A stretch of 64,000 nucleotides of DNA, from contig WAKO01000015.1 in NCBI GenBank assembly GCA_015523325.1, forward strand, positions 9,812-73,811. The letters are read 5' to 3'. Below are positions 21,391 to 49,327 of this stretch, one piece after another; position 1 is the stretch's first letter, and each line of letters starts with the position of its first letter. The position numbers and the translations under genes are program-made. This DNA is from Candidatus Micrarchaeota archaeon. Its GTDB lineage: Archaea; Micrarchaeota; Micrarchaeia; Anstonellales; J096. The notes below the pieces were generated by a model, which saw only the letters and a list, made by a program, of their open reading frames with translations, made no database searches and was not told the DNA's origin.

Positions 21391-21440
21391 TGGAGGCTTT
21401 AGTTTGGGCTAGGAGTTGGAAAGGCCCCTTGCACTTAAAC
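21391..21440 (-). promoter_or_regulatory. 3' trailer half of the 16S pre-rRNA processing stem
   Basis: In RNA sense, GUUUAAGUGCAAGGGGCCUUUCCAACUCCUAGCCCAAACUAAAGCCUCCA pairs with the leader at 22937-23013. Confidence 0.75.
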
Positions 21441-22936
<1,496 letters not shown>

Positions 22937-30713: not shown

Positions 30714-31775
30714 TTAAGACCTTCTTTTTACTATAACTTCTTCATCAACCGTAATGAGTTTAACTCTCCTTCTATCAAAATAAATAGGAACACTTAAAAT
30801 TAGCTTTTTTGTTGAAAGGTTAAGCTCAAATTTATAAAGACTAAAGTTTTTATCAACTAAAGAAAAATCCAAAGTATAAGATCCTTTTTTTATTGAGTTT
30901 AAAAGCTCTTCATACTCCTCATTTGAGAGAACAAATCTAGCCTCTCTAAAAACTTTTCCTGTTGTACTTCTTGGGTCAAAATCTACATTAAAGATTACTT
31001 TTGAGTGTCCTAAGGAGGGAGGGATTAATTCAATAACTACTCTTGTAGGGTTTGCAAGTAAGTGAAAGTTGGAGTTTAGCTTTTCAGAATCTATGTAAAT
31101 TGCTTTATCCAAATACTCTTTTATTGAAGATAGCTCATTTTTTGCATTCTCATCAACAATCCCTAAAATCTCTTCATTATCTAAGACATTTTCTCTCAAA
31201 AATCTTATTGTGGTTAAATAGGAAAGCTTTTTTGTTAAATCAAGAACATCTTTAGTTAAAAAGTAAGGAACCTCAACTTTTACCTCAGGAACTAAAGGAT
31301 TTGTAAAATGAATAGTTGCATAGATTCCATAAACTTCTAGCTCTTTTTTTAGCTTATTCTCATAATCTTTCATGAGCTTCTCTAAATAAGAAGGATTATT
31401 AATTTGGAGAGATTGAAAAGTTAGGAAAGGTAACCAACTAACTACAACTGCCTTTGAAGAGCCTTGAAGAATAGAGAGATATTTTATAGGGAATCTTCTC
31501 TCAAAAAAAGGATAGTTGTTTTTTGATAAGAATAAAGCATATTCTTCAAAAGCTTTTTTTGCTGGAACATAGTGCTCTTTTCTATAAAAATTGTAGTTTA
31601 TTTTGCTCATAGAAGGAGTAGAGTTTAAAGGAGCTTGTGAATAAGAAGGGGAGAAGGCTAAAGATGATGCTAGTAATGCTGGGGCTAGTTTGAAAGCTAA
31701 AAATTTTTTGAACCTCTTTTTAGCTTTTGAAACCTCTCTTTTTCCAAAATCCATATATTTAAACTTTTTCCACAT
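30714..31775 (-). CDS. Secreted hypothetical protein, last gene of the minus-strand surface locus
   Basis: 353 aa with signal-like N-terminus KKFLAFKLAPALLASSLAFSPSYSQAP. It starts 93 nt downstream of the 1549-aa gene. Confidence 0.6.
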   Translation of the reverse strand: MWKKFKYMDFGKREVSKAKKRFKKFLAFKLAPALLASSLAFSPSYSQAPLNSTPSMSKINYNFYRKEHYVPAKKAFEEYALFLSKNNYPFFERRFPIKYLSILQGSSKAVVVSWLPFLTFQSLQINNPSYLEKLMKDYENKLKKELEVYGIYATIHFTNPLVPEVKVEVPYFLTKDVLDLTKKLSYLTTIRFLRENVLDNEEILGIVDENAKNELSSIKEYLDKAIYIDSEKLNSNFHLLANPTRVVIELIPPSLGHSKVIFNVDFDPRSTTGKVFREARFVLSNEEYEELLNSIKKGSYTLDFSLVDKNFSLYKFELNLSTKKLILSVPIYFDRRRVKLITVDEEVIVKRRS

Positions 31776-34800: not shown

Positions 34801-36518
34801 TTTTTTGTTATTTTTTGGCTTGCTAAAGTAGTTACCTTTTCTGTTCCTTTTTTAGCTAAAGACATTGCTGTTGTGGCGGCTTTTGCTGTTTTTGTATCAA
34901 CATACCTTTTTGCAAGCCCTCCTGAATAATTAACTCTCAAAGCTCTGGCTGTTCCTACTCTACTCATATCAAAGAAGAAGAAGGGATTGTTTCCACTCTC
35001 ATACATTGAAACAAATAATAGGCCAAACAAAAGAACTATGGGAAGGCAAATAGCTATATTGTAGAGTAAATTATCAACCCTCTCTGGAGAGATGGGGGTG
35101 AAAACAGAATAGCGGGAAATACTAATTATGGTTGGGTAATCTACTTGCTCTTCAGTACTGTAAGGGAGAGTGTAATTTATGTAGGCATCTCTTGAAATAC
35201 ATTGAGGTTGTGGGAGAGGTTCAATTATAGCTTCCCCACAAGTAGGGATATCAAAATAGTTTTCATAATTATCTATTCCAAACTCATCAATACATTTTTT
35301 TAAAGCACACGCATTCCCAAGCTTTGAAAAGCAAACAACAGCATTTGTTCTTGTATAGTATTTTTCCTCTATACCATTATCAACTAACAACTTACTCACA
35401 TTTATTGTTGCTCTTCCAAGCTCTTTTGTGTTTACCCTGCAAGCATATTTTTTATCAACAAAGTCTTTGTTAACCTTTTGCTTATATTCAACTATGAAGA
35501 GGAGGGAAGCATTTCTTAAAGGATAAAAACCAGGGTTTTCATAATTAAAAACTAGAGGAGTTGCATTAACAATTATGTTGTTCTTCTCATTTTTTTCAAT
35601 AACAGAAACCCTTCCATAAGAAAGGTCTTTCAGGTCTTGGTATCTAAATTCTCCAAATAAATAAGGGGAGCTAACAGTACAGGTTGGAATTGTTGATGGT
35701 TGATAAGGGTTTATGCATGGTCCTTTTCCAGGAGAGGTTATGCAGTTAAGGGAAAATTGAGAAGATTGTCTTACTCCAGTAGAAGAGTCTTCAATATCAA
35801 TTGCTTGACCGAAATTATATTCATAGGAAAAGTTTGCAATAAAATCTGAAATAATAGCATAGCTTGAAAGTAAAGGAGTAGCAATTTCAGAGTTACAAAC
35901 AAATTCAAAACCCTCCTCCAAATATTCATAACCTGGAGGTTTGCTTATAGGAGAGCTGCTTCCTAAAACATTAAAATAGGAAGAAGTTATTGTGTTTAGG
36001 TCAAAGCCTCCATTATTTTTTTCAAATTCACATCCAACCTTAATTGTATCTCCTGTGTTCATATCAATTAAAGTGAAATTCAAAAATACATCTGTTATAT
36101 CAGAATCTAGGGAAAAAGTATTGTCTACTATACCATTACCATCTTGTTGTAAACCAAGCATCAAAGGGCCAACTCCTCCACCCCCTCCATCGCCTCCTCC
36201 ATTTCCTCCATCGCCTCCATTACCTCCATTACCTCCTCCATTTCCTTGCCCTTGATTAATAACAGCATTTATAGAGTAAACCTTGCCCGTTATTACAAGC
36301 TCATCATTTAAACATGAATTCGGATATTGAAAAGAAACATCACAAATACAACCTGCTATCGCATTAACATCAGGAGCACCAGGATCATTTTGAGGAGAGC
36401 TTATAAATATAGGGGCTTCTATACAATTAGTAGGACAAGTTATAACAATGGAATGTTGGGAGGAAAAAGAGAAAGTTATTAGGAAAAGAAAAATCAAAAA
36501 GGGAAAAGCTCTCATCAA
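31869..36518 (-). CDS. Giant bitopic envelope protein: signal peptide, ~460 aa Cys-containing ectodomain with a Gly/Asn tract, one TM, and a ~1040 aa basic predicted cytoplasmic region
   Basis: 1549 aa. N-terminus MMRAFPFLIFLFLITFSFSS, a G/N/D tract at residues 90-117, a TM LLYNIAICLPIVLLFGLLFVSMY at residues ~483-505 (nt 35004-35072), followed by K/R/T/A-rich sequence consistent with the positive-inside rule. Confidence 0.8.
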   Translation of the reverse strand: MMRAFPFLIFLFLITFSFSSQHSIVITCPTNCIEAPIFISSPQNDPGAPDVNAIAGCICDVSFQYPNSCLNDELVITGKVYSINAVINQGQGNGGGNGGNGGDGGNGGGDGGGGGVGPLMLGLQQDGNGIVDNTFSLDSDITDVFLNFTLIDMNTGDTIKVGCEFEKNNGGFDLNTITSSYFNVLGSSSPISKPPGYEYLEEGFEFVCNSEIATPLLSSYAIISDFIANFSYEYNFGQAIDIEDSSTGVRQSSQFSLNCITSPGKGPCINPYQPSTIPTCTVSSPYLFGEFRYQDLKDLSYGRVSVIEKNEKNNIIVNATPLVFNYENPGFYPLRNASLLFIVEYKQKVNKDFVDKKYACRVNTKELGRATINVSKLLVDNGIEEKYYTRTNAVVCFSKLGNACALKKCIDEFGIDNYENYFDIPTCGEAIIEPLPQPQCISRDAYINYTLPYSTEEQVDYPTIISISRYSVFTPISPERVDNLLYNIAICLPIVLLFGLLFVSMYESGNNPFFFFDMSRVGTARALRVNYSGGLAKRYVDTKTAKAATTAMSLAKKGTEKVTTLASQKITKKLLGGNKVSPLKRSLVTSGLRVLQTTAVRVATTLTGALMYGLGSKKGVLKPTVKPSLKTVKQAAKAAKRSITHPLTTTQVAMELSVPLLTVASSAVSNILSKAIHSIIPKEALKKEEAFEGSETKTKKEKEQLIAESSKLIATKAKALANIINLYGKVLNSLLLYSLNKIFGVKANDFSLGELRMLHEHYSTSTALSILASESKKAEKNLVDMNAWNGSLNLNVRSPNELEKISYNLAVLEAYAFLGGSQAIRDVLGVNSNYHTLHGFFSSMLYTLLGGEFVIDEENNLRTMISKFFSSNGEEKAFLASQISLFGLHLHIAGKTGNIERLDQVREFIVRREKAREFYKEIVENERKSFGLDSTLGNYGDVYEYFKEAQKRGKPLSVNEAQIFSLAFVVANILEKSSREEAKAKLRAIFRDEETINNLLSFYDLDENQRRALITSLKQAAIVKPPKPSKDKGVEAVGTSGTAKEEKEEKDKEKPSQVSLNKESKQIFNLINGMERRINDFYKGQLSIWEFSRDVLDKFNVDYADENLSSLQAGILYNIKEANLEQAATSFINLRSLKVLSKLRASLETQEQQSTPIPQPTLKISLTTPSPPSPEKPALLLRREKITTPIERVEVILEDERSPIKGYLASQVLRGLSFLYGNQPRFIKEVAKTEFKKVRRDKNIDYSKFEEQMRDPDFARKSLTYLVALNRVLHGNDEELSLKARKRFSQAIQASTEGNTFNRDKFFEELNKIVPKTEFEKAQREIFGEKGAIKIIDSRYDLKTEEGRFGFEELLFGKGLYREVEKIETYPSQASISPLQPFRESTLETSIRGVRSYFNWGAEGQREQGEQNKRLNSFYEYNRMLYKNELPKEVLGGEAIVLEHDKPSNYLLSYSLFAMDMLYFGDTLEAINIFRKESSPLERTTLYSVLSPVYSPKEVQKPGFRRGYLFGPDLYGVVSSLGIGVASLRSNDSNNGSSISGENKENKAS
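36168..36251 (-). repeat. Imperfect short tandem repeats encoding GQGNGGGNGGNGGDGGNGGGDGGGGG
   Basis: The plus strand shows reiterated cctccat/tacctcc units (36181-36240). It is low-complexity coding sequence. Confidence 0.8.
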
Positions 36519-36572: not shown

Positions 36573-39500
36573 TTATTCAACTGGATAGCAGGTTGCATAC
36601 TTTATTCCTTGAGTAAATATTTCAGAGAGCTCTTGAGGGGATAAAGCTGTTGGATAGCAGTAGTTTTCCTCATTAAACCCTGGTGGAGGAATGTTAAAGG
36701 TTATAGGAGCTACATATTGAGAGGCAATAGCTACTGTTTTTGAGGTTTCATTATCACACAAAGAAAATCCAGTTTGGGAAAGAGAGAGGCCTATGAAATC
36801 TGATAGTTCTTCACTATACTCAGATATTTCAAACTCAGCTATTTCATCCTTCTTTATCTCACACCTTATTTTGCTTACACATTGTTTTTTAGGAATGCAA
36901 TCTGGAGTTTCACAATCATCAGCAACATCATAAGGCTGAGAAGACTTTAAGTTAACAAATCCTCCTAAACTCATAAGGTTCCTGCTAAATTGACAAATTC
37001 CTTCTGGAGAAGGGAGGAGGTAAAACCTCTTTCCAGGAATATTATTTTTGTTTAAAACATCCTCAAATTGAATTCCAATATTTCCATTGCTTATTAATGC
37101 GGATTTTCTATAATTTAAGTAAGAGAAGAAGAGCTCTAATTCACTCTCATTAGCATAAACAATATCATTTATGTAGAAGATTGTAGGAAGCCCAAGAGTA
37201 GAAAGGCTTAGCCTCGATATCTCTACAAGCTTGTCAACTTCACTCCTAGCTCTTAGCTCATCAAGCCCAATAATATTAAATCCTACTCTAAAAATAACTA
37301 CATCATATTTATCCTCTCTTTGGTCTTTAAATGGAGATAACTTGCTTAATCCCCTAGCATTATCCTCAAAGATTTCTTGTAAATCAGAAGTTTCCAAAGA
37401 GGAAAGAGGTTTATCAAAAGCAATTGAAATTCCTACCAAGCAATCTTTACAGCTAGCTTTTACAGCTTTTATTCTAGAGATAGTGTTTTGATTATTTACT
37501 GAATAACCTCTTTCAGAATAAAGGGCTTTATTATCAGAATCAAGGATTAATTTATTAGTTACTATTATTGCTGTTCCAGTATCTGCTTTTGAAAAGAAGG
37601 AGAAACCTCTTTCATTGTAAGGATCTCTTATAGCTAATTGCACATCTTGGAGAAGCTTTAGGAGAGGGAGGGAAAGAGAAAGTTCTTCAACACTAGGCTT
37701 AAAGAAAGGATCATATCCTTTATCAAGGTTTGTGTATTTAACCTCATAAAGGCTAGGATCATCAACAATCAAAACAGGAAGAATTCCTCTCCCCATATAG
37801 CTTATAAGCCTATCTTTAAGATAATAGTTGGAAGGATAGAAGTTTGGAGGGTTAAAAGATTCATTTGAATAAAACGTTACTCTAGGAGCAACCACAAACT
37901 CCTCTGATTTTGGGGCTTTTGTAAATACTCCATAAAAAGAAAAATTGGCTTCATCAGGAAGGTCTTGTAAGTCAAACCTATACCTTCCTTCTTCATAATC
38001 TTCCTCACTTCCTCCACTTACTTTTTCATAATTAATTGAAAACTTCTCTAAAGGAGGATCAGCATCAACTAAAGAAAGGAAATATAAATAAGCTTTAGAA
38101 GGGAGAGTATAGGAATAAAGGAATGTATTTGCTATTGGGTCAAGAAACTCATACTCCCAAAGCCTCTCCACTCTTATATACCTAGTCTCAACAGCTCCAG
38201 CATACCTCTTATCACAACCTATTCCATATGCTAAACATCCTTCCTTTCCCAAATATTTTCTATGAAGTTCCCAATCTACAGGGTTCCATTCCCAATAATC
38301 AATAAATCTAGAAGGAGGCTCCAATTTATCACAATCCTTATCTATCATGCAAGTGTATAGAACATCATACCATAAACTACGCAAACTACTTTCTTCAGGG
38401 TAATTTAAAATTATGGTTTCAATGAAAGGAGGAGTTGGAGAGAGTATTCTTCCAACCTCCTTTATTAACTCAGTCCCATCTATATTCTTTGAGAGGGCAA
38501 TTAGGTTTAGTGTTCCTCTAAAAGAGCTCTTTTCATCAAAAAAGGAAGTGAAATTAATAACATCTGGGATGTATTGGGAGGTTTTTGAAGAAATTTCTAT
38601 TGAGCTCTCTATTTCCTCAAAAGCAAGGTTTAGAGGGGAAGAGCCTTCACAATATCCAAACTCATTAACCCTCAAACCTGTTAGAGTGTCATTAGCAATA
38701 CATTTTCCAAACTTTCCATCAGAGATTTCATCTTTAAACACAAAAGCAGAAACAGCCATATCTCCAAAGCAAGTTCCTTCATACTCATCTCCAACCCAGC
38801 TTCCTAAGCAAAAGTATTTAGGAGGCAACTCAGCGCATAACTCTGGATTTATTGAATAAGGAGAATTACTAAGATTAAGCATTAAAGAATCTCCTTGATA
38901 AAGAGAGTTAGGGTATTTTGTTATATAAGGATTAAAGCAAAACGCATACTCTATTTCTTGGTTTTCATTGCAATTATCATAAACTGGAAAATCATTTTGG
39001 GATGTTCCTGAATAAGAGAGATAGTTTAAGTAGGTTGAATCTGTTTCATAATTTGAAGGAGAGGTTGAGGAAGGCCAAGCCTTTGGAGCTAAAAATAAGT
39101 AGTCCCTCAAATCTGATAGTCTGGCTAGAGATAGATCTTGGCCCTTTGCCCCATAAGATATTACAGGGATCCCACTCTCTATAACAGCACATCTCTTTCC
39201 ATCTTGAAAACCAAGATCTGTTTGCTTTTCAAAACCTATAGGAAGCATAGGAGAAACATCACTTGCTAAATCAAAGAATAAAAGAGAGTAGTTTACATCA
39301 ACCCAAGGGCCAACCTCTCCATAAGAGGCTAGGAAAAGTCTTTCCTTCTCATATTGCTCTACCAATTGCTCAAAGAACTCTGGATTTCCAGTAAAGTAGT
39401 TCATTATATACATTTCTTGAGTGTTCTCTTTTACAAAGGTTTTTGAAGGAGCAGGAATAGCTTCTCTTTCCAAAATAACTCCCCTAAGGAACGGTCCTCT

Positions 39501-41849
39501 TCCATCATCAAAGTATTTAACTCCTTTAAAGCTTCCTATGTTTGAAGGAAATAATGGAGAGTTAAAATCAGTTATTCTTCCATTATCATCCACTATTGAG
39601 ATTGGACCATTTTCTCCTAACTCCTCTGGGAAAAGCCAAGCGTCTTCCCTTTCCTTAATATTATAACCTCCTCCAGATGTATTAACCAAAGTGAATATAT
39701 CGTCTCCTCTTAAGTTAGTATAACACCTATAATCGCTTGGAGATAAATCTTCATTAAGTATTGGATAAGATTTATCAAACAGATTGGTTCCTACAAATAT
39801 AACTTCAGTTTGTGGACCTACAGATGCAAAAGCTATAGAAAATGTAGAGGAGTAATATGAATCAGAAATACTAGGTATTAATGAATTTCCTGTTTGATCT
39901 TTACACCCTCCAAATATATTTAAGTTTCCGCACACGTCTTCCAAAAACCCTCCAGGATCTGCATCAAGAGTTAGATTTACATCATTGTTTGGATATCTTT
40001 GGTCTATGTTTCTACACACATCTTCCAAATTAATATCCTTTATATAATTTCTTCCATCAAATATTATTCCAACATATTTATCAGATATTTCTTTTCTTAT
40101 ATCTTGAGCGCTACAGTAGTAAGGATCTGTACTATTAATGTTTTGGTTCTCTCTTGCAGTTATATTATAGTCAACATAAACAAAAATACTTCCTCCCAAA
40201 TGAGCAAGATAAATAAACCTATCGCTTCCTTCTCCATAATAATAAGGTTTCATTACAAGAACTTTTGGATGTTTTTCAACCAAATCTTTTTCTGAGAGAT
40301 AGGGTTTGTTTGGGGAGGATTGGCTAATTGGAGTTCCATCAAATAAATTATAGGAGTCAGGATATAAATAGTTGCAATCACCTCCTGTACAGCCACAAGG
40401 AACTTCTACAAGCTCTCCATTTTCAATTGCTGTGCAAGAGCTCCTATAATAATCTTTTTTATTGCAAAAAGAGGAAAGGCAATCTTGCCCACTCCTACAT
40501 TCATATTCAGCCCCAATCCTTTCCCTTCCCTCCTTATCCATACTTCCAAATTTAAACTGTTCATAATAAGTAGGAACTCTCCTTAATAATTCTGGATAGG
40601 AGTTGAGAGGGGCTCCTTCTAAAATTGTTATTGTTGAGTTCTCATAAATGCCTTGGGTTATGTTTCTAATTTTTCCAAGAGAACTTGATTTAGCTTTAGA
40701 AAAAGTAGGAAGGTAGTACTCATCTCCCTTTCTTTCAGAAGAAAATTCAAAACTCCCTAAATCTTGAGAAGAGCTAACCAAGCTTTGAAGAATTTCTTTA
40801 TCAAAAGATAAGCCAAATAAATAAGGAGTTACATAAACCTCATATCCCTTTTCATTAAACAACTCTCCATTATTTAAGAAAGGTATTTGCTTACTTTTGT
40901 ATTCTTGAGAATAGCAAAAAGAAAGAGAAGAGAAAGGTTTTTTCTCATTAGGAGAGAAGAGAAAATCTTGCTTTGCATTTAACATACATTCCGCAAAAGT
41001 AGTGAAGTTATTTATCCTCTCAGAACTTGAAGGAGAATAACCATTCAACACCCAATAATCTCCTTTCTTAACACAAAGTTGCTGATTATTTATCATTTCC
41101 TCAGTTAAATAAGTATAATAATCATCCACAAACCCAGAAGGGTTTAAGGCTAACATGTAGGAGGAGAAAGGAACTAAAGTTCTTGCTATCTCAAAGTCCT
41201 CAAAACTCCTTCCAGCCCCTATCCTATAGGTTACGAATAAAGCTCTTTGTGACTTAAGCTTTTCTAATGAGGAAGGAGTTAGTTCTCTAAACTCACACCT
41301 CGCATAAAGGAAATTAGATTGAGTTGAAACTAAATATTGGAAGTTATAATTAGGCAATCTATAGGTTAAGGAAACTCCTTCTCCAAAAACTCTTCTATTC
41401 TCTTCAGCATCAGCTATGGAAAAGGATTCTTTTTGAGGAGAATAATACATAGAAGGATAACATACTAGGTAAGTGCAACCAAATTCACACTTCTCTCCTG
41501 CCAAAAAGGTTCCAGGACAAGGAGAAACTTCTAAAGGAGAGGGAAACTCAACTATCTCATTATTAACTTTATCCCTTAAAGCACATATCTTACAAAATCC
41601 TGTTTCTTGAAATTCACTACAATCATACCAGTTTCCTCCACACCCTCCACAATCAATTCCAGAAGGACATTGTTTTTGGGAAAGTCCAACATAATCATCT
41701 GAAAATACTTGAGGAAGTGCATTGTTTTCCAAAACATCCTCCATGTTTGTTATACAAAGCTCTCCAACCTCTCTTAAACATCCTTGCAAAAATAATAGAG
41801 AGAGGAAAAGGATTATAAGGAAAGGCTTAAGGCCAAGTTTTATTCTCAT
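36573..41849 (-). CDS. Giant Cys-rich secreted or lipobox-like surface protein
   Basis: 1758 aa. N-terminus MRIKLGLKPFLIILFLSLLFLQGC, many Cys clusters (CPSGIDCGGCGGNWYDC; CRSGQDCLSSFC; CGCTGGDC), and no C-terminal TM. Confidence 0.8.
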   Translation of the reverse strand: MRIKLGLKPFLIILFLSLLFLQGCLREVGELCITNMEDVLENNALPQVFSDDYVGLSQKQCPSGIDCGGCGGNWYDCSEFQETGFCKICALRDKVNNEIVEFPSPLEVSPCPGTFLAGEKCEFGCTYLVCYPSMYYSPQKESFSIADAEENRRVFGEGVSLTYRLPNYNFQYLVSTQSNFLYARCEFRELTPSSLEKLKSQRALFVTYRIGAGRSFEDFEIARTLVPFSSYMLALNPSGFVDDYYTYLTEEMINNQQLCVKKGDYWVLNGYSPSSSERINNFTTFAECMLNAKQDFLFSPNEKKPFSSLSFCYSQEYKSKQIPFLNNGELFNEKGYEVYVTPYLFGLSFDKEILQSLVSSSQDLGSFEFSSERKGDEYYLPTFSKAKSSSLGKIRNITQGIYENSTITILEGAPLNSYPELLRRVPTYYEQFKFGSMDKEGRERIGAEYECRSGQDCLSSFCNKKDYYRSSCTAIENGELVEVPCGCTGGDCNYLYPDSYNLFDGTPISQSSPNKPYLSEKDLVEKHPKVLVMKPYYYGEGSDRFIYLAHLGGSIFVYVDYNITARENQNINSTDPYYCSAQDIRKEISDKYVGIIFDGRNYIKDINLEDVCRNIDQRYPNNDVNLTLDADPGGFLEDVCGNLNIFGGCKDQTGNSLIPSISDSYYSSTFSIAFASVGPQTEVIFVGTNLFDKSYPILNEDLSPSDYRCYTNLRGDDIFTLVNTSGGGYNIKEREDAWLFPEELGENGPISIVDDNGRITDFNSPLFPSNIGSFKGVKYFDDGRGPFLRGVILEREAIPAPSKTFVKENTQEMYIMNYFTGNPEFFEQLVEQYEKERLFLASYGEVGPWVDVNYSLLFFDLASDVSPMLPIGFEKQTDLGFQDGKRCAVIESGIPVISYGAKGQDLSLARLSDLRDYLFLAPKAWPSSTSPSNYETDSTYLNYLSYSGTSQNDFPVYDNCNENQEIEYAFCFNPYITKYPNSLYQGDSLMLNLSNSPYSINPELCAELPPKYFCLGSWVGDEYEGTCFGDMAVSAFVFKDEISDGKFGKCIANDTLTGLRVNEFGYCEGSSPLNLAFEEIESSIEISSKTSQYIPDVINFTSFFDEKSSFRGTLNLIALSKNIDGTELIKEVGRILSPTPPFIETIILNYPEESSLRSLWYDVLYTCMIDKDCDKLEPPSRFIDYWEWNPVDWELHRKYLGKEGCLAYGIGCDKRYAGAVETRYIRVERLWEYEFLDPIANTFLYSYTLPSKAYLYFLSLVDADPPLEKFSINYEKVSGGSEEDYEEGRYRFDLQDLPDEANFSFYGVFTKAPKSEEFVVAPRVTFYSNESFNPPNFYPSNYYLKDRLISYMGRGILPVLIVDDPSLYEVKYTNLDKGYDPFFKPSVEELSLSLPLLKLLQDVQLAIRDPYNERGFSFFSKADTGTAIIVTNKLILDSDNKALYSERGYSVNNQNTISRIKAVKASCKDCLVGISIAFDKPLSSLETSDLQEIFEDNARGLSKLSPFKDQREDKYDVVIFRVGFNIIGLDELRARSEVDKLVEISRLSLSTLGLPTIFYINDIVYANESELELFFSYLNYRKSALISNGNIGIQFEDVLNKNNIPGKRFYLLPSPEGICQFSRNLMSLGGFVNLKSSQPYDVADDCETPDCIPKKQCVSKIRCEIKKDEIAEFEISEYSEELSDFIGLSLSQTGFSLCDNETSKTVAIASQYVAPITFNIPPPGFNEENYCYPTALSPQELSEIFTQGIKYATCYPVE

Positions 41850-41858
41850 GATCTCCTC

Positions 41859-42896
41859 CTAAATAAGCCTGTTTAATAAAGACCCTATGTCTGCTCCTGT
41901 ATAGATTCCTTTGCTTAAAATAAGAGAGAAGTTGTTTATAAATATTGCAGTCAACGAGAGCGAAACAATTTGAGAAATTAAGAACTCAGTAGAAAGAATT
42001 AATCCTAAATCTTCCTCTATAGATTGTGGTTCTCCTAACGTTGGGTTGAATCCTCTAACCAATTGTTGTTCTGGGAGGATTAGGGCACTAGTGGCTACTA
42101 ACTTACAAAATGCTTGGTCAGCTTCAACAAAAAACTCTTCCTTATCTTCTAATATTAATTTTGGAACTCCAAAAAAGAACATTGCAGTTGTTATTGGATA
42201 AACATAATAAAACCCTATGGAAAGAGCTATAAGGAAGCTTCCTGCTGCTCTAAAGAAAGGAATTACTCTTAAAATTAAACCAAAGATCAGGAAATAGCCC
42301 ATGCTATCCTTTATATATCCTAAAGCTGAGTAAGCAACTGATAATCCAACAGCTATTGAGGTATCAATACTAGCCCTAATTATTAATTCATTTCCTCTCT
42401 TTATTGAAGAGAAAGAAGGATCTCCAAGGATTGGGTAGGAAAAGATAGAGAAGGTGGTACCTCCTTCTTTCAAATAATTAGAGGCTAACCTAGCATTTTT
42501 CATAGCTAATAAAAAGGCAGAGTTCATATTGTCAAATACAAGTGGTCTCAAATAGGACTCAATAAACCCTATTGTTCCTTCTGTTGGAGTGAAGATGAAA
42601 GGATAGAAGATTGTAGCAAGCCATTCAATTATTTTAAAGAGGAGAAAAAGTCCTGCCCAGAGAAGGGCAACTGCAATACTATCCAATATCTCAGCCTTTG
42701 CTTTAACAACTCCTTGTTCATCACTAAATATTTTAGCAAACATATACCTCAAAACTGCTACTGCAAAAAATATTATTACTCCAATCAAGAATAGCTTTTC
42801 AAAGGATGCTATTTCATTAGGAGAGAGAAAAGCTGTTATTGTTGGCTCTTGGGAGAGATAAGGAAGATGGGAATTTAAAAGAACTAACTCAAGCAT
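41859..42896 (-). CDS. Polytopic membrane protein, paralog 6 of a six-member tandem family
   Basis: 345 aa. Carries the signature RVIPFFRAAGSFLIALSIGFYYVYP (nt 42195-42269), a TM1-charged loop-TM2 N-terminus, and a C-terminal TGAD tail. Confidence 0.8.
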   Translation of the reverse strand: MLELVLLNSHLPYLSQEPTITAFLSPNEIASFEKLFLIGVIIFFAVAVLRYMFAKIFSDEQGVVKAKAEILDSIAVALLWAGLFLLFKIIEWLATIFYPFIFTPTEGTIGFIESYLRPLVFDNMNSAFLLAMKNARLASNYLKEGGTTFSIFSYPILGDPSFSSIKRGNELIIRASIDTSIAVGLSVAYSALGYIKDSMGYFLIFGLILRVIPFFRAAGSFLIALSIGFYYVYPITTAMFFFGVPKLILEDKEEFFVEADQAFCKLVATSALILPEQQLVRGFNPTLGEPQSIEEDLGLILSTEFLISQIVSLSLTAIFINNFSLILSKGIYTGADIGSLLNRLI

Positions 42897-42939
42897 ATTA
42901 CCCCTTTCTCAGAGCAAATATAAAATTTTAATGGAAAAA

Positions 42940-44031
42940 TTACCAAGTAATTATTCCGCTCATTCTTATAAACATCTCCATAAGATTATTGCTTTCCCCT
43001 AAAAGCCTTAGTAAAGATCTAACAACAACAGCCATTATTATCAAATTTATAGAGCCAAACAAAACTACCCTAAATATTAATCCCGCATAGGCCTCAATTA
43101 TATTTGAAACATTTATAACAACTCCTGATTTATCTTCAATAATAACATTTGTTCCACTTCCCTTAATCTTCCATTCATCAGTTAAAGTTCCCAAAGAGAG
43201 TTGAAGAAAAGATTGGCTTATGGAAGGAATTCTATCATTAGTTAGCTTAGAAGCTGAGGAGAAATCGGTTGCAATCAAATCATTTGAATTCAAATTTGGT
43301 AAGCCAAGAACATACGCTTCTAAAACTATTAAAAGAGGGTAAAAAACATAAAAAGAGAGGATTAAGGCAAATAGCACATTAGCAAAGGTTCTAGTGAATG
43401 GAATTAATCTCATAACTATCATTATTGAGAGAACAGCTACAATGTTTTGAGAGAGAAAGAACTTTATAAGAACTAGCTGGGAAAATGCAAAAAGAAAAAC
43501 AGTTGTGAAAAGCAAAGAGGAGATTTGGAATAAAAAGCGAGTAGCCCACTCTAAATCAGAAAAAGGATAAATAAAGGTTTGGGGAGCTCCTAGCAAACAA
43601 ATTAAAAAACTATTTGAAGCACATTTTGAGATGCTTATTCTTGTTAAATAAAGCAAGTGCATTAAAGCCCAATTATTTGCTGCTGAGAGTTCTAAGGAGG
43701 AAGCAGTGAGGGAAAGTGAATAATCATAAGCAGCCTCATAAAAACAATCTCCTTGGAGTATTCCTTGCTTTCCTGTAATGCTCTCCATAAAATCATTCAG
43801 CAAAGATGAGGAGGTGTCTTTGAAAAAAGAAACTATTATTATTAGAAAAACTATTATGAAACCATCTGCAATAACATTCCATATTTCTTCTCTTGCCCAA
43901 AAGGATACTTTTTCATCCCCTATTATGCGTGAGGCTATGAAAGCTATTGCTATTATTCCGAATGAAACAAGAACACTTAAAGAGAGTAAAGAAACATCAA
44001 TTGAAAATGCTGTGGAACATAAATCTGCCAT
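42940..44031 (-). CDS. Polytopic membrane protein, paralog 5
   Basis: 363 aa. Signature RLIPFTRTFANVLFALILSFYVFYP (nt 43336-43410) and C-terminal RLLGESNN. Confidence 0.8.
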   Translation of the reverse strand: MADLCSTAFSIDVSLLSLSVLVSFGIIAIAFIASRIIGDEKVSFWAREEIWNVIADGFIIVFLIIIVSFFKDTSSSLLNDFMESITGKQGILQGDCFYEAAYDYSLSLTASSLELSAANNWALMHLLYLTRISISKCASNSFLICLLGAPQTFIYPFSDLEWATRFLFQISSLLFTTVFLFAFSQLVLIKFFLSQNIVAVLSIMIVMRLIPFTRTFANVLFALILSFYVFYPLLIVLEAYVLGLPNLNSNDLIATDFSSASKLTNDRIPSISQSFLQLSLGTLTDEWKIKGSGTNVIIEDKSGVVINVSNIIEAYAGLIFRVVLFGSINLIIMAVVVRSLLRLLGESNNLMEMFIRMSGIITW

Positions 44032-44038
44032 CTTATCC

Positions 44039-45148
44039 TCATCCTCCTGAAATGTAGTAGGTTAACCTTCCTATTATGAATGGGCTTATCTCAGCTCCAA
44101 GTATCTTCGCTATTCCTCCAACAATAGAAACAAAAGTTAGTAATGTTATTCCCTGCGCCAATATTACAAAAAACACAAAGGAAGAAATAACACTACCTGA
44201 AGAGGTTATTGCATTCTTAACCTTAGATAAGTAAGAAGTTAGTTTTGAGTTAGGGCAAGGAAAGACTAAAGCTTCTACTCCTGAAAGCTCAACTTTTATA
44301 GAGTTATAGAAGGAATTTATTTGGTTTTGTATTGCTGCTTGGCCAGTAAAGTAAGTGTTAACAACAGCATTTGAAACTAAGATGGAGAAGGGCATTATTG
44401 AATACAAACCTATTGCTAATGCTAAGAAAAATGCTCCTCCACCTCTAGTTATTGGATTAGCTCTAAGTATTATTCCAATTGCAAGCAAAACAGTTATTGC
44501 TTCTTGGGAAGAGAGTTGTTCTATTAAAAACCTCTGAAACTCTAAAGCCATATAAGCAATTCCCAAAAAATAAGAAAATCCAGACATTGGTCTTATCACC
44601 GCATTATAAGCAGTGCATGGACTTAGAGAGGCTCCAGCATCTGCAGCAGGGTTTGATAAAAAACCTCTAATTCCACTACTTTCAGGATCACTACTTCTTG
44701 GAAATTCTATGGAAGTGGAGGAAAGGAAAGAAACCTGAGAAGTTAGAGAGGCCATAGCACTAGCATCTCTTAAAAAGGAAGAATGAGCATTTAGAATATC
44801 GCTCAAAACTCCTGCATTATAATCAAGAACTAAAAGGGAAGAGCTAATCAATGCATTTCTAGAAGCATTTGCCCCTGTAGTGTAGGAGTATATTGTTGCT
44901 CCTCCTATCTTCTTATTTATATAATCTGCCAACAAACCAAATAAATTATTGGCTACATCAGAAAATAGGAAAGACGTTAAAGCAACAAACAAAGCTAGGA
45001 AAAGAACATATTCAAAGAACTCGTTTCTTGAAATTATTATTAGGGAGGAGTTTTGGAGAGCCTTGCCTATCATAAACATTAAACTATAGAAGAGGACTGG
45101 AAAAACGATGATAGGGGCTAAAGGGGAGAGCTCAACCATATAACTCAA
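44039..45148 (-). CDS. Polytopic membrane protein, paralog 4
   Basis: 369 aa. Signature RANPITRGGGAFFLALAIGLYSIMP (nt 44390-44464), preceded by QRFLIEQLSSQEAI, with C-terminal KILGAEIS. Confidence 0.8.
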   Translation of the reverse strand: MSYMVELSPLAPIIVFPVLFYSLMFMIGKALQNSSLIIISRNEFFEYVLFLALFVALTSFLFSDVANNLFGLLADYINKKIGGATIYSYTTGANASRNALISSSLLVLDYNAGVLSDILNAHSSFLRDASAMASLTSQVSFLSSTSIEFPRSSDPESSGIRGFLSNPAADAGASLSPCTAYNAVIRPMSGFSYFLGIAYMALEFQRFLIEQLSSQEAITVLLAIGIILRANPITRGGGAFFLALAIGLYSIMPFSILVSNAVVNTYFTGQAAIQNQINSFYNSIKVELSGVEALVFPCPNSKLTSYLSKVKNAITSSGSVISSFVFFVILAQGITLLTFVSIVGGIAKILGAEISPFIIGRLTYYISGG

Positions 45149-45224
45149 CCTACATTCTTTAACAATCTTTTCTATTTCTTTTCTATTTTTTCAAATTTAT
45201 TTTTTTCCCTTAATCCCAAGATTC

Positions 45225-47207
45225 TTACCTAAAGAGCTTGTTTATTGCTGGAAGGAACATATCTCCCTCCATAAATGAAGAGAATCCCGCAACACTATAA
45301 ATTGTTGCAATTAGAGCTAGTAAAGGAATTCCATAAGTAGCAAATATTACCTTTCCTAAATCCAATAGCTGAGATTGTTCATTTGCAAACAAAACAGTTA
45401 CAAGAGGGGCCCTATTAGCACAAAGACTACAATCCACATAAGTTGGATAATATCTTAGGTTGGTTGGGTAGTTTTCACATCCAGAACAAGTTCCATAAGC
45501 GCTTGGCAAAGGTTCCACAACAACCTCAAAATAATTTTTAAGATTTTGTCTATTAATGAGGAGGGTTGACCAATCCTCATAATTAAATATTCCTTTTGAT
45601 TGCTCATACCATCCATTTCCTCCAAAACAATTGTATTCAGCAAAGCAAACGTCCTCTGTATAATTATCAAATTTTAAAATGTAGTTGCTGCCTGTGTAAT
45701 AAGCATCAATACTCCTACATTGAGTAGGGCAAAAAACATTAAAGCTATCTTTTGTTCCAGGAACTATATTTGGAAGGCTCCTACAATCAGTTGGGCACTC
45801 AATCTCATACTTTTGAATGTCATCAGAAGGAGAAGAGAGCTCAAATATCTCATTATAAAGTTGCTCATTCTCATATGCATACATCTTCTTAAAACATTGA
45901 GGATAATTATCATACAAAACTTTGCAAGCTCTCTCTGCATCTCTACATTGAATTGAATCATCTGGGTATGGGAGGGTTCTACACTCCTCAAAACAATAAA
46001 GCCCTGTTGTGTCTTGAGGAGTAGCGTTAGGGGAAAGAGGGGTTAAGGTTAATCTACTCCCTCTCCTTATCTCGTAAAGTTGCTCAAAACCTGCTTCTTC
46101 AGAATATCCTTTCAATGTTGCTAAGGAAACAACATCATTAGCATAATCTAAAGCACCTAGCTCTCTTGCATAATACTCACAAGAGTAGAATGTTGTAGAA
46201 GTTTGAGGATCAACAAATGTTTCTGTTTCCCCTCTAATAAATTCAGGAGCAAATTGGTAGAGGGCTATTTCATTACTAAAAACTTGCTTTGGATTTGTTT
46301 TATCATAAAAAGCTATTACATTGTTAAAGCAAACTGAAGGGCAAACTTCATAAGAAGATTCTTGCAATTGAGAGATTGGTTGGAAGAAAGGAAAGTAGAA
46401 GAGAAACATAAATGTGGGGTAAAATAGCATTATCCCTAAACCAACAGCAATTAGAGTAGAACCTATTCTCCTACTAAATATAAAAATTCTTAATAGAATT
46501 CCTACAGCCAATATAGCCGGGCCAAATAAGGAGGTGGAAAGCTTAAGAGTAAAGAAGGATACTACAACTCCAATATAAGCAAACTCAAAGAAATCTCTTA
46601 GTATTAACTTTGGATAAGAAGAAGCTCCTTTATCATACTCATATCCAAAACTAGAATAAGCTGCAATTAGGTTTTCTATTCCAATATGAAAACCCAAAGT
46701 TACTTGGGATTTGGCTATTTCCTTGTTTATCTCAATAACTTTATTTTCCATTGGTTCTAAATAGGAGTTCTTTAAGTAGTTAAACACAAAGTTATCCAAA
46801 CAAAATCCATAACTGTTTTGAGGATCACAAGCAATAGCATAATCTTTTTCAAGGCTAACTAAGCCAACCAAAAAATCAACAAATGCTAGAGCAATTATTA
46901 GGAACATCACTATAGCTGTATTTGCTAGGAGTTCCTTTACTTCTATTCTGAAATAATACTTAAGGATTTGTAAATTAAAGAGATCTCCAAGCATATAAAG
47001 CAAAGCTGTTATAAAAACAGCAATAGCTAAAGAAAGGATTGCTAAAGCCTGCCAATTCTTCAAAATATCAAACAATATGCCAGAAGGAGCATTTTGGAGG
47101 TCTTGAAACCTTTGTTCTAGAGAAGTGGAAAAAGTTATAGCTAAAATAAAGGCAAGGAAGAAAATAAAAAGAAAATATCTGGATCTCTCTTCTTTCATAC
47201 TATTCAC
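45225..47207 (-). CDS. Polytopic membrane protein, paralog 3, with a ~330 aa Cys-rich extracytoplasmic insertion
   Basis: 660 aa. Signature RIFIFSRRIGSTLIAVGLGIMLFYP (nt 46416-46490). A Cys-rich domain follows (CFEECRTLPYPDDSIQCRDAERAC; CPTDCRS; CPTQCRS; CSGCENY), then a final TM. Confidence 0.8.
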   Translation of the reverse strand: MNSMKEERSRYFLFIFFLAFILAITFSTSLEQRFQDLQNAPSGILFDILKNWQALAILSLAIAVFITALLYMLGDLFNLQILKYYFRIEVKELLANTAIVMFLIIALAFVDFLVGLVSLEKDYAIACDPQNSYGFCLDNFVFNYLKNSYLEPMENKVIEINKEIAKSQVTLGFHIGIENLIAAYSSFGYEYDKGASSYPKLILRDFFEFAYIGVVVSFFTLKLSTSLFGPAILAVGILLRIFIFSRRIGSTLIAVGLGIMLFYPTFMFLFYFPFFQPISQLQESSYEVCPSVCFNNVIAFYDKTNPKQVFSNEIALYQFAPEFIRGETETFVDPQTSTTFYSCEYYARELGALDYANDVVSLATLKGYSEEAGFEQLYEIRRGSRLTLTPLSPNATPQDTTGLYCFEECRTLPYPDDSIQCRDAERACKVLYDNYPQCFKKMYAYENEQLYNEIFELSSPSDDIQKYEIECPTDCRSLPNIVPGTKDSFNVFCPTQCRSIDAYYTGSNYILKFDNYTEDVCFAEYNCFGGNGWYEQSKGIFNYEDWSTLLINRQNLKNYFEVVVEPLPSAYGTCSGCENYPTNLRYYPTYVDCSLCANRAPLVTVLFANEQSQLLDLGKVIFATYGIPLLALIATIYSVAGFSSFMEGDMFLPAINKLFR

Positions 47208-48138
47208 TTCCTAATGAGAATACATCAAAAATTTTCTTAAAGTTTGAGATAAAGCTGAAAACCAATCCAAGTATTAGATTTGGAATAAATACAGAGGTTA
47301 AAGTATAGATTTGCAAAAACGCTAAATCCTCACAAGTTATTGGAGTTAGAAAATAAAAAGAAAAACCAGAAGGAAGCTTTCCCTCCAACTCATCACAAAG
47401 GTCTAAATAAAGGCTTGCTATTGGATTGGAGAAGTCAATAAAAGGATAGAGAAAAACTGAATAAAGAGAAGGAAGTAGGAAAAATATTCCTATGAATAAG
47501 GAATACATGAAATCTCCTACAGAAGTAAAGCCTGGAATAATCCTTATTATTAAAGCTAAGAGAAGGAGGATAAAAATAGCATTGCTACTTACTAATAATT
47601 CTAAAATAAATCTTTGAATGGAGAGAGTAGCCAGGATTGCGTTTAAAGCTCCTATTCCCATATTAGCATTTTCCACAAATATAATATTTTTTGGAGCTGA
47701 TCTAGAAGGGAAAAAAGCAATCCCAGAGCCAAAGCTACTTATTTGCCTATAAACTATTGAATTAGGGCCAAACTCAGTAATTATTTGGTCTCTATAATAC
47801 TTTATCTTTCTTATTATTTGAAGTTGCATTATTTTTATTGACTCTCCTCCAGCTGTAACCAAAAACTCATAATCATCTCCTGCTGGAAGTAAATAGGAGA
47901 AAGTAAAGCAAAATAAAGAGAGCAAAGGTCCTGTTATTGCAAAAAATAAGGCAGAAATTGCAAAGTTTCTCATGAGATCTTGAAAAAGCAAAACTGCTCT
48001 TCTATCGTTTGGATTAGCTCTTGTATAAACAAAGAGAGCTATTGAGGAAAAAGCTAGGATTAAGATTAAAACTGCAATAGTTCCTTGATTTTTTAGCAAT
48101 TCATTAACCAAAGCTGTTGAAATGTCAAGGCACTTCAT
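47200..48138 (-). CDS. Polytopic membrane protein, paralog 2
   Basis: 312 aa. Signature RIIPGFTSVGDFMYSLFIGIFFLLP (nt 47470-47544), preceded by QRFILELLVSSNAI. It overlaps the next gene by 8 nt. Confidence 0.8.
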   Translation of the reverse strand: MKCLDISTALVNELLKNQGTIAVLILILAFSSIALFVYTRANPNDRRAVLLFQDLMRNFAISALFFAITGPLLSLFCFTFSYLLPAGDDYEFLVTAGGESIKIMQLQIIRKIKYYRDQIITEFGPNSIVYRQISSFGSGIAFFPSRSAPKNIIFVENANMGIGALNAILATLSIQRFILELLVSSNAIFILLLLALIIRIIPGFTSVGDFMYSLFIGIFFLLPSLYSVFLYPFIDFSNPIASLYLDLCDELEGKLPSGFSFYFLTPITCEDLAFLQIYTLTSVFIPNLILGLVFSFISNFKKIFDVFSLGSE

Positions 48139-48145
48139 GCTATCC

Positions 48146-49327
48146 CTAAATTAATCTTTCCACCCCATATAGGAAGAACTCTCCTCCTAGAATTATTGAT
48201 AAAGATCTTATAAAGGAAATCACTACTAAAGCAACCACAAAATAAAACATAAAGATGCCTACTGTAAAACCAATAAGAGCTTGTGAAAAAAGAGGGAAAA
48301 ACCTGCTTGAAAAAGCGCTATCAACCAAAAAGATTTGGTTTCCTGTAATATAAGACATTAACCCCCCATATGAAACTGCTTTTACCCCATTAATTAAAGA
48401 TGTTAGAGCTATTGAAGCAACATCAGAAATTATTGGAATCCCAATTAAAGCTGTTATGTTTAAAGTGTAAGCTGTTAAGGTTAAAGCCCTTGAGAAATAA
48501 GCAAAAGTTCTAAAAAATCCATTTATGAAATTTCCGTAGGAGAGGAGGGAATTTAAAGCTCCTGCCTCAGCCTTAGCATTATCAATTAGAGCAGTTATTC
48601 CAAGCAAAGAGTTGTCATCAAGTAATGAGTTCGTTATGTCTGAAGCCAAAACAACTGTCATAGGTAAAACTAAACCCGCCCCTATTCCAATAGCAACCAT
48701 TGTAGAGCCAAGCTTTCTGGTTAAAGAAAATGTCCTAAAAAATATTCCCAAAGGAATAAAGAACTTTATTGAAAAAAACTCAAAAATTAGCATTAACTGC
48801 TTAAGGCCAGACAAATAAGTTAAGTGGTCAAAAATGCTTGAATAAAATATTAATAATTTATCCAAAAGGATAGAGAAAGAAGAGGTCTGAAAGCTCCCTC
48901 CTACCTTAAACCCAATAGCTCTAAAAACAAAGCTTACAGAGTTTGAAACTGAGATGCTAGAAACAGTAGCTGCAGGAGGAATGTATTGGGAAACCAAATC
49001 ATACATTCTAAATAAAAAAGGGTTTATTATATTATCATCTATTTTAGAGATTGCTAGATCCACAAAAGAACTCTTAGGCTTTTGTAAAAAGTTTGAAGCT
49101 AAGCTATCAAAATAGTCCCAACCAACTGCAATAACTAGTAGTAAAACCAAGTTTAGGATTATGGTCTTAACTTCCTCTCTATAAGTTATTATCCCCCTTT
49201 CATTTCTTGAGACTAAATTAAAGTAATAGAGAGCTGTTGCAAAGGAGAGAGAGGCTACTGAAGCAACTAAGATTAAATCTGAATATTGGAGCATATCAAA
49301 AGGAGAGAGATTTGTCAAATGAGACAT
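48146..49327 (-). CDS. Polytopic membrane protein, paralog 1 (first gene of the locus)
   Basis: 393 aa. Signature RTFSLTRKLGSTMVAIGIGAGLVLP (nt 48662-48736) and C-terminal IILGGEFF. Confidence 0.8.
   Translation of the reverse strand: MSHLTNLSPFDMLQYSDLILVASVASLSFATALYYFNLVSRNERGIITYREEVKTIILNLVLLLVIAVGWDYFDSLASNFLQKPKSSFVDLAISKIDDNIINPFLFRMYDLVSQYIPPAATVSSISVSNSVSFVFRAIGFKVGGSFQTSSFSILLDKLLIFYSSIFDHLTYLSGLKQLMLIFEFFSIKFFIPLGIFFRTFSLTRKLGSTMVAIGIGAGLVLPMTVVLASDITNSLLDDNSLLGITALIDNAKAEAGALNSLLSYGNFINGFFRTFAYFSRALTLTAYTLNITALIGIPIISDVASIALTSLINGVKAVSYGGLMSYITGNQIFLVDSAFSSRFFPLFSQALIGFTVGIFMFYFVVALVVISFIRSLSIILGGEFFLYGVERLI

Follow-up and report, generated by a model that had tools for sequence, protein, structure and literature searches.

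A fixed-order array of six divergent membrane-protein paralogs in a Candidatus Micrarchaeota archaeon, candidate subunits of a type IV secretion-like platform

Six tandem membrane-protein genes

DPANN archaea are ultra-small, host-dependent cells, and to our knowledge the machinery through which they make contact and exchange with other cells is largely unknown. Here we describe six consecutive genes, M1 to M6, in a 64,000-nucleotide stretch (hereafter, the window; positions 9,812 to 73,811 of contig WAKO01000015.1, assembly GCA_015523325.1) of a Candidatus Micrarchaeota archaeon. The products of the six genes probably join into a single multi-subunit structure in the membrane, a channel or platform for contact between cells. 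All of them are co-directional, with intergenic gaps of -8 to 76 bp (Table 1), and their products share only ~20% pairwise identity in a MAFFT alignment; the pairwise BLAST matches among them are all centred on one motif, R-x23-P. M3 belongs to the position-3 orthogroup (subfamily g8), and its second predicted extracellular loop (ecto-loop) comprises 349 amino acids (aa) with 18 Cys and 48 Asp+Glu. Inserts at the same place in the position-3 orthologues hold 20-128 Cys, and in other genomes the Cys-rich inserts reach ~1,300 aa.

Table 1. Position of the six paralogs, their signatures and other features in the window (aa, amino acids; ORF, open reading frame; HMM, hidden Markov model; TM, transmembrane helix; AF2, AlphaFold2)
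Feature	Position	Strand	Remarks
M1, position-1 paralog	48146..49327	(-)	393 aa ORF; 90 bits vs non-window family HMM; best position-specific HMM pos1
M2, position-2 paralog	47200..48138	(-)	312 aa; most divergent, T in place of R7; best position-specific HMM pos2
M3, position-3 paralog	45225..47207	(-)	660 aa; N-terminal signal-like segment, large ecto-insert; 111 bits vs family HMM
M4, position-4 paralog	44039..45148	(-)	369 aa; 101 bits; positional orthology ambiguous
M5, position-5 paralog	42940..44031	(-)	363 aa; 95 bits; best position-specific HMM pos5
M6, position-6 paralog	41859..42896	(-)	345 aa; 83 bits; g4 subfamily
Signature of M1, R198-P222	48662..48736	(-)	R-x23-P
Signature of M2, R199-P223	47470..47544	(-)	R-x23-P
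Signature of M3, R240-P264	46416..46490	(-)	R-x23-P
Signature of M4, R229-P253	44390..44464	(-)	R-x23-P
Signature of M5, R208-P232	43336..43410	(-)	R-x23-P
Signature of M6, R210-P234	42195..42269	(-)	R-x23-P; AF2 model: tight cytoplasmic turn + TM4
M3 Cys-rich acidic insert, predicted extracellular	45351..46397	(-)	residues about 271-619, between TM4 and last TM
G1, predicted lipoprotein	36573..41849	(-)	9 bp downstream of M6; 1758 aa with 50 Cys; N-terminus lipobox-like (LQGC)
G2, single-pass protein	31869..36518	(-)	1549 aa; 54 bp after G1
X, ORF	30714..31775	(-)	353 aa; last co-directional gene, 93-bp gap; membership uncertain
Complete archaeal 16S rRNA gene	21440-22934	(-)	

A conserved signature and a common architecture

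The original prediction, made from the letters of the DNA alone, held that each of the six proteins carries an Arg and a Pro that bound a 25-residue segment in a fixed register. The alignment bears this out: each 25-mer occurs once per protein, the six fall into one MAFFT column block in the same register, and the conservation counts given for them (R1 6/6, P4 4/6, R7 5/6, G10 5/6, A15 5/6, G19 5/6 and P25 6/6) are correct. The remainder of the proposed common architecture has proved equally sound and can be extended beyond the window. A first TM, a charged loop and a second TM are common to M1-M6, with WAKxE as the family-level equivalent of the charged loop; the QRF[IL][IL]E segment found in M2 and M4 corresponds to an invariant Q in the family; and the last TM is followed in all six by a G-x-[DE] tail, which at the family level reads LGG[DE]..GL.RLI.

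Because a motif of this kind could arise from hydrophobic composition, the window proteins were scored against an HMM built from non-window lineages only. M1, M3, M4, M5 and M6 score between 83 and 111 bits (Table 1; E-values of 6e-34 to 2e-25 among the window ORFs), whereas controls shuffled in 20-aa blocks with hydropathy preserved, 300 per protein, reach at most 12 bits. M2, analysed together with its orthologue, matches the family profile in hhalign with a probability of 96.8% (E 2.4e-10) and with the motif in register, against 0.3% for the reversed control. The signature is thus no artefact of hydrophobic composition, since both the shuffled and the reversed controls fall far below the real scores.

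In a 91-sequence family alignment, R1 and P25 are invariant, and the E of WAKxE, G(-3), R7, G10, A15 and the tail G are each conserved in at least 90% of the sequences. Of the 151 top family representatives, 149 have the strict motif R-x5-[RK]-x2-[GA]-x4-[AS]-x9-P exactly once, and the core consensus reads LPxGIvL-R-t-F-p-F-T-R-k-l-G-G-l-L-I-A-i-A-I-G-l-Y-x-V-Y-P. Signature positions 11, 15 and 19 are always occupied by small residues. Glycine-zipper motifs are well known in helix packing, and we read this i/i+4/i+8 arrangement on one face of TM4 as a small-residue zipper, made up of G10/[GAS]11, A15 and [GSA]19, that may form a helix-packing surface.

The topology was predicted from hydropathy, from the distribution of Lys/Arg (positive-inside rule) and Cys, and from the helices of AF2 models. 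The predicted order is an outside N-terminus, TM1, a short charged inside loop, TM2, a helical ecto-loop of ~100 aa, TM3, the R-x5-R turn R-x-F-P-x-T-R on the inside, TM4, a variable ecto-loop, the last TM and a cytoplasmic tail. In keeping with the positive-inside rule, the N-termini of M1, M4 and M5 have no Lys or Arg before TM1, and the R-x5-R turn contains two to three Lys/Arg and no Asp or Glu. The AF2 model of M6, computed from a 91-sequence multiple sequence alignment (MSA), has a predicted local distance difference test score (pLDDT) of 75, rising to 90-95 over the signature, and a predicted template modelling score (pTM) of 0.70. In this model, a helix of residues 163-211 ends just past R210 and, after a one-residue break, a second helix of residues 213-249 holds R216 to P234; the signature therefore appears to represent a tight cytoplasmic hairpin turn plus the whole of TM4, with the Pro at its outer boundary. 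The long helices of the M6 model run from the membrane into an extracellular bundle. The model of M1, made from a 10-sequence MSA, is mediocre (pLDDT 64), and its Foldseek matches have template modelling scores (TM-scores) of ~0.1.

Always six, in a fixed order

The locus that we designate L001 (loci of other genomes are given by L numbers) carries the same six genes one-to-one and in the same order, with 40-48% identity to those of the window; the orthologues of M1 and M4 there are 43% and 46% identical, respectively. The locus scan used one genome per species (GTDB) and a position-3 subfamily query, and kept 80 loci from 148 relatives. By ORF calling and the family HMM, 68 of 84 non-redundant loci of other genomes contain exactly six tandem members; another five reach six after split or overlapping ORF calls are merged, and the remaining 11 run into a contig end. 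Among the complete loci of the 84, none has a number other than six. The expectation that orthologues elsewhere would always occur as a six-member set thus holds for every complete locus. The retrieved genomes almost all belong to Ca. Micrarchaeota/Micrarchaeia, that is, to Micrarchaeota-type DPANN archaea, and take in the complete genome of Ca. Fermentimicrarchaeum limneticum, 'ainarchaeum' and Bilamarchaeaceae. Several Micrarchaeota assemblies possess two separate hexads and hence twelve paralogs (L029+L031, L020+L047, L028+L077, L018+L045 and L024+L035).

The six positions are also distinguishable from one another. A tree of all members made by the unweighted pair group method with arithmetic mean was uninformative, since the window lineage with its long branch dominated it, and subfamily and position-specific HMMs were used instead. 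Position-specific HMMs trained on 32 arrays and tested on 32 others placed 187 of the 192 members of these unseen arrays at their own position. With these HMMs, L005 and L009 are resolved at all six positions, the window at positions 1, 2, 3 and 5, and L001 at positions 1, 3, 5 and 6. According to the subfamily HMMs, the 'RTFFFTRKLGGL' type stands at position 3 everywhere, often with ecto-inserts of 20-128 Cys, and the 'RAFPPTRGAGA' type stands at position 6; M6 shares its g4 subfamily with the position-6 genes of L001, L005 and L009.

How old the arrangement may be is suggested by the 16S rRNA gene of the window, which is only 73-77% identical to the Micrarchaeia 16S in locus L077, so that the window organism would represent a deeply separate lineage. 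Since the order of the hexad is kept despite this distance, the ordered hexad should predate very deep splits. No 23S or 5S gene occurs anywhere in the 64-kb window, and the rRNA genes are therefore unlinked.

These data leave next to no probability that the six genes are recent tandem duplicates or that a composition-driven motif unites them: apart from the tandem arrangement itself, nothing speaks for such an origin, and the paralogs are only ~20% identical and show positional orthology across genomes as far apart as the 16S comparison indicates. Both variants of this explanation are refuted by the shuffle and reversal controls together with the positional HMMs. On the comparative evidence, the hexad is ancient and ordered and not the result of a recent duplication. 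The prediction that the paralogs are non-redundant is likewise upheld by their low identity, their one-to-one order in L001, the constant number of six and the success of positional assignment, and these findings together support the view that M1-M6 are non-redundant subunits of one hetero-oligomer.

An undescribed family

When 1.84 billion cluster representatives (50%-identity clusters) were searched exhaustively with HMMER, 2,897 representatives of the family were retrieved at E<=1e-3 and 2,017 at E<=1e-10. All checked members that are named by their source are called 'hypothetical protein'. None of 116 members scanned (25 + 91) gave a match in Pfam, in NCBIfam or among PDB sequences; the HMM matches to PDB sequences obtained with the 25- and 91-sequence profiles (SLC30A1, TIP20 and an ABC TM domain) were rejected as chance matches. 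The searchable literature yielded no account of the family or of a six-paralog array in DPANN archaea or Micrarchaeota. M1-M6 are, as far as sequence comparison can tell, ancient, non-interchangeable paralogs of an undescribed family of five-TM membrane proteins.

The original prediction had named VirB6/TrbL, FlaJ/TadC, ABC-2 and SpoIIM-like proteins for comparison, and in profile comparisons none of these characterised families matches. It is accordingly very improbable that the array encodes a conventional transporter or pilus platform, such as an ABC-2 permease, a FlaJ/TadC/PilC platform or a SpoIIM-like protein. The operon setting and the polytopic, helical nature of the proteins would fit such a machine, and TM domains of ABC exporters are among the top Foldseek matches, but with TM-scores of 0.1-0.15; moreover, none of the 116 members matches T2SSF, ABC2_membrane, SpoIIM or any transporter Pfam, and no ABC, PilB or FlaI ATPase lies beside any hexad.

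Giant Cys-rich partners and the wider locus

In the window, M1-M6 are followed on the same strand, at tight spacing, by G1, G2 and X (Table 1). Given this operon structure, M1-M6 are likely to be co-transcribed with giant Cys-rich surface proteins. A G1 orthologue of 1762 aa (E 6e-193) stands directly after the hexad in L093, another genome of the window lineage, and G1-like ORFs of weaker similarity come after the arrays of the Micrarchaeota loci L066, L069 and L087; sequence and neighbourhood mark G1 as a conserved hexad partner in the window lineage. The M3 insert and G1 resemble each other weakly (a one-sequence search aligns 38 aa at E 0.01).

G2 has a signal peptide, an ectodomain of ~450 aa with 16 of its 17 Cys, a TM at residues 481-509 with the remaining Cys, and a Cys-free, Lys/Arg-rich cytoplasmic part of ~1040 aa. 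From the operon structure, it may belong to the system. The ectodomain of G2 also contains a Gly-rich low-complexity tract, GQGNGGGNGGNGGDGGNGGGDGGGGG, at 36140-36230 of the window (residues about 88-115). G1, G2 and X gave nothing meaningful in Pfam or NCBIfam, and none of the three has a Walker A motif.

Housekeeping genes surround the array in the window, namely those for pyruvate kinase, GluRS, ribosomal proteins and 16S rRNA. Pyruvate kinase occupies the place of a gene that in L001 lies directly upstream of M1 and encodes a 367-aa SLT_2 lytic-transglycosylase-like protein (L001:2750-3853), which is odd in an archaeon; VirB1 of the type IV secretion systems (T4SSs) of bacteria is a lytic transglycosylase-type enzyme. 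Elsewhere in the window, three further large ORFs without family assignment were observed at 9158-12505 (-) (1115 aa), 6939-8981 (-) (680 aa) and 13412-15592 (+) (726 aa). The 1115-aa ORF has a thrombospondin type-3 repeat just under the Pfam cut-off (24 vs 25 bits), and the three ORFs possibly represent more surface proteins.

Pilin and ATPase modules in relatives

In relatives of the window genome, members of the family are found beside genes of T4SS or Ced type. Eleven hexads, including that of the complete Ca. Fermentimicrarchaeum limneticum genome, form what we call type A loci, in which two or three small pilin genes are followed by the six M genes, two ~270-aa proteins each with two N-terminal TMs, an ATPase of ~510 aa and three small genes. 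The type A pilins match PF18895 (T4SS_pilin) in 10 of 15 cases (best E 1.5e-7) and PF04956 (TrbC/VirB2) in seven of 15 (best E 1.4e-7). The type A ATPase matches DUF87, AAA_10 and P-loop_TraG, and its best full-domain match in the PDB is the C-terminal domain of VirB4, 4AG5; DNA_import_CedB is the best NCBIfam model for the neighbouring ATPases (6e-19 and 2e-17), followed by the CedD and VirB4 families.

A single-copy subfamily of M proteins (263-367 aa) always occurs in a minimal module of pilin, M, a ~250-aa protein and ATPase, and this is seen in three independent contexts, namely L008 (next to integrase and restriction-modification genes), L096 and L097-99. A single-copy member had no tblastn match among 72,556 plasmids, and a scan of viral contigs revealed no relatives of the single-copy subfamily. 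Between the ~250-aa protein and the first 180 residues of the NCBIfam CedB model there is a weak match (1.2e-3), and the protein and the CedB/VirB4-like ATPase therefore look like a split CedB. Hexad loci contain two such CedB-N-like genes and two or three pilin genes, versus one each in the single-copy modules; the multiplication thus seems to have affected several membrane parts of the machine. From these arrangements, the M family would fill the slot of the polytopic subunit (VirB6, CedA or TedA) in archaeal minimal T4SS/Ced-like modules.

Several further features of these modules were observed. The ATPase of the archaeal modules is short (370-510 aa; L005:16182-19359, L010-L017 and L021; L008, L096 and L097) and is always preceded by ~250-aa two-TM proteins, one in single-copy modules and two in hexad loci, which looks like a split CedB/VirB4 whose membrane/N-domain half has been duplicated in hexad loci. 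The type A pilins (L005:9045-9898, L010-L021) have one Cys early in the mature part (..LCxF..) and another at or near the C-terminus (..AC), a pair that would fit a disulfide within the molecule or a processing step akin to cyclisation. Type A loci have a gene for a zinc-ribbon-plus-TM protein of ~125-200 aa downstream of the ATPase (L005:19672-20064); where subunit 3 is giant, this gene lies directly upstream of the hexad instead (L046, L050, L062, L066, L067, L084 and L087), and three zinc-ribbon loci (L066 and L087, with the related L069) have a G1-like gene after the array. The zinc-ribbon-plus-TM protein is a possible additional conserved component.

A proposed hetero-hexameric platform

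With a little better than even confidence, we propose that M1-M6 together form a membrane platform, pseudo-hexameric in build, that belongs to a domesticated T4SS-like apparatus. A single-copy gene would have turned into a fixed-order array of six, both in the window genome and in Micrarchaeota-type DPANN archaea, and the products of this array, one copy each, would assemble into a ring of pseudo-six-fold symmetry. This ring would form the membrane base or channel of a T4SS-derived cell-surface apparatus, with the conserved TM3-turn-TM4 hairpins packed around the ring axis and with the ecto-helices and the Cys-rich insert of subunit 3 projecting outward. In the window lineage, G1, and possibly G2, may supply the distal end that makes contact. 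An ATPase of the HerA/VirB4 type has six-fold symmetry, which the ring possibly matches, and the apparatus would serve cell-cell contact or exchange in a host-dependent archaeon.

Several observations weigh against this proposal. At the window locus itself, no pilin, CedB/VirB4-like ATPase, CedB-N-like or small type A gene was found within the window plus 10 kb on each side (84 kb), as checked with tblastn and with HMMs run against every six-frame ORF of 35 aa or longer. Because no pilin or ATPase gene lies within these 84 kb, the mechanism in the window genome can only be inferred. That the six proteins assemble into a ring, in what stoichiometry and for which substrate, and that an ATPase of this genome is linked to them, are likewise proposals. 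Most hexads of other genomes (type B) likewise stand alone among housekeeping genes, with no ATPase within 10 kb; their neighbours include AspRS, a PIN_5 ribonuclease, an RNA ligase, Rpb1, LeuRS and CDP-archaeol synthase. The sequences also offer no bridge to VirB6. Genuine VirB6 proteins carry PF04610, and this domain was matched neither by the six window proteins (E<=1) nor by 25 (E<=10) and 91 (E<=1) family members. A family profile of 164 sequences aligned by hhalign with 22 VirB6 sequences yielded a probability of 0.5% (E 0.11), against 0.2-0.4% for reversed controls; the VirB6 profile, made of sequences 35-99% identical to A. tumefaciens VirB6, was narrow (effective number of sequences 3.7), and no secondary structure was used. 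VirB6 has an invariant, essential Trp in its conserved TM-cytoplasmic region (PMC2653234), which is present in 22 of the 22 VirB6 sequences and has no counterpart here, with no Trp conserved at the 25 signature positions of 149 members. In a Foldseek search with the M6 model, the R388 TrwI/VirB6 stalk chains 8rt9_F and 8rtd_L rank third and sixth of 350,542 PDB chains, which is suggestive at most, as these matches are not significant (E 1.3-1.9, probability ~0.1, TM-score 0.15-0.26), and VirB6 is not among the 50 matches listed for the M1 model. Furthermore, the VirB6 of R388, the only VirB6 assembly solved, is a homopentamer at the base of the stalk, where the pilus is proposed to assemble (PMC9259494); a single gene that forms a homopentamer differs from six fixed paralogs.

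Pilin-like sequences are nevertheless found in stand-alone hexads. In ~30 type B loci, subunit 2 has one or two pilin-like repeats N-terminal to its five-TM body (e.g. L036:8431-9987), and in L009 the repeat is present on other members (L009:5226-6761 and L009:7960-9369). The fused repeats are matched by both pilin queries and the family HMM. A pilin profile aligned with the TM1-loop-TM2 region of the family (LAY..G..F...AK) gives a weak hhalign similarity (P 9e-5, probability 59%, reversed control 0.6%), and a pilin HMM matches neither the canonical family hairpins nor the window proteins, with shuffles scoring similarly.

The isolation of most hexads, the window's included, from any nearby ATPase or free pilin gene is what would be expected if the hexad worked independently of any T4SS, as a membrane base on which giant Cys-rich surface proteins (G1, G2 and the insert of subunit 3) are anchored or assembled, either as an attachment organelle or as an envelope scaffold, with the pilin/ATPase neighbourhood being secondary. 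The G1-type giants directly after the hexad in the window lineage and in some Micrarchaeota would fit this explanation, as would the position-3 ecto-inserts of up to ~1,300 aa with more than 100 Cys. We nonetheless consider it unlikely. Single-copy members always lie within pilin-M-ATPase modules, type A hexads lie inside such modules, and subunit 2 has pilin-like domains fused to it in stand-alone hexads as well, all of which ties the family to T4SS-type pilins; G1-like neighbours, moreover, occur at few loci only.

If the proposed platform is T4SS-derived, it could, we speculate, go further and be the core of the apparatus for host docking and for exchange of DNA, lipids or other macromolecules in Micrarchaeota-type DPANN archaea, with the ectodomain of subunit 3 and G1 as the host-contacting tip of a hetero-hexameric conduit; this extension is tentative, and we rate it as rather doubtful. 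Six paralogs in a fixed order characterise every complete locus found in Micrarchaeota-type genomes and of at least one very distant lineage, which makes the hexad a concrete, testable candidate for the contact or exchange machinery of DPANN archaea, and cultivated Micrarchaeota co-cultures exist. If the proposal is correct, the hexad would be a clear case in which a homo-oligomeric secretion subunit evolved into an ordered hetero-oligomer. On the more doubtful reading of a host-docking conduit, it would also define a new type IV-like secretion class, with six distinct subunits in the VirB6 slot, a split CedB ATPase and a pilin-channel fusion, that evolved from a single-copy conjugative module.

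Comparison with known systems

One of the closest known parallels to the M proteins is VirB6, which has an outside N-terminus, a cytoplasmic C-terminus, about five TMs and a large outer loop (PMC6120205). The topology predicted for the family equals this arrangement, and in family relatives, unlike at the window locus, the M gene occupies the VirB6 slot between a VirB2-type pilin and a VirB4-type ATPase. In both families, conservation is strongest in the TM, short cytoplasmic loop and TM that follow the outer loop, and long helices extend out of the membrane, as modelled here for the M proteins. VirB6 oligomerises around the axis of its system, as the M proteins are presumed to do, and it lacks the R-x23-P signature and the LGG[DE] tail of the family. 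The M proteins are therefore probably VirB6 by function and position, whereas membership of that protein family has no support from sequence.

The same likeness could instead reflect homology, the M proteins being true, extremely diverged members of a VirB6/TrbL-CedA-TedA superfamily. The shared genomic slot, the predicted topology and a site of maximal conservation with F-x-x-T-[RK], which follows directly after a TM helix in both the family and VirB6, would agree with such a descent, as would the VirB6 stalk chains among the top six Foldseek matches and a pilin-like N-terminus of the kind reported for CedA and VirB6 (PMC9905601). We regard true homology as quite unlikely, however, in view of the hhalign result, the absence of any Pfam or NCBIfam match and the lack of a conserved Trp; the F-x-x-T-R likeness, for its part, was aligned by no program.

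Among archaeal systems, CedA and TedA, which serve DNA import in Sulfolobales and Thermoproteales, belong to a minimal, chromosomally domesticated T4SS derivative of pilin, polytopic membrane protein and CedB/VirB4-like ATPase, as is proposed here. They are described as single genes with six to seven TMs, which sets the M proteins apart; the M hosts, furthermore, are DPANN archaea, and the hexad often has no pilin or ATPase genes in cis. NCBIfam, which has CedB and CedD models, gave no match for the M proteins. CedA's N-terminal part is homologous to its cognate pilin CedA1, and a similarity of VirB2 to VirB6 has been published at 66.6% and E 0.001 (PMC9905601). The match between the pilin hairpin and the M family is of the same order as this published VirB2-VirB6 similarity and parallels the relation reported for CedA1 and CedA. 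It is in the TM1/loop/TM2 hairpin that the family aligns, weakly, with the two-helix pilins of the VirB2/TrbC/T4SS_pilin type (PF04956 and PF18895).

Multiplication of the VirB6-slot protein has a bacterial counterpart. The rvh T4SS of Rickettsiales possesses five VirB6-like paralogs, RvhB6a-e, with large extensions (PMC2653234), and Anaplasma has VirB6-1 to VirB6-4 (PMC7648143). As in the M hexad, a protein of the VirB6 slot has been multiplied into divergent, conserved copies, some of which bear huge extra-membrane extensions, and Rickettsiales resemble the hexad-bearing archaea in being obligately host-associated and in having reduced genomes. The copies of Rickettsiales and Anaplasma are true PF04610 proteins of diderm bacteria and number four or five, whereas those described here are archaeal, belong to another family and are invariably six. 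The rvh system is the nearest precedent for multiplied proteins in the VirB6 slot.

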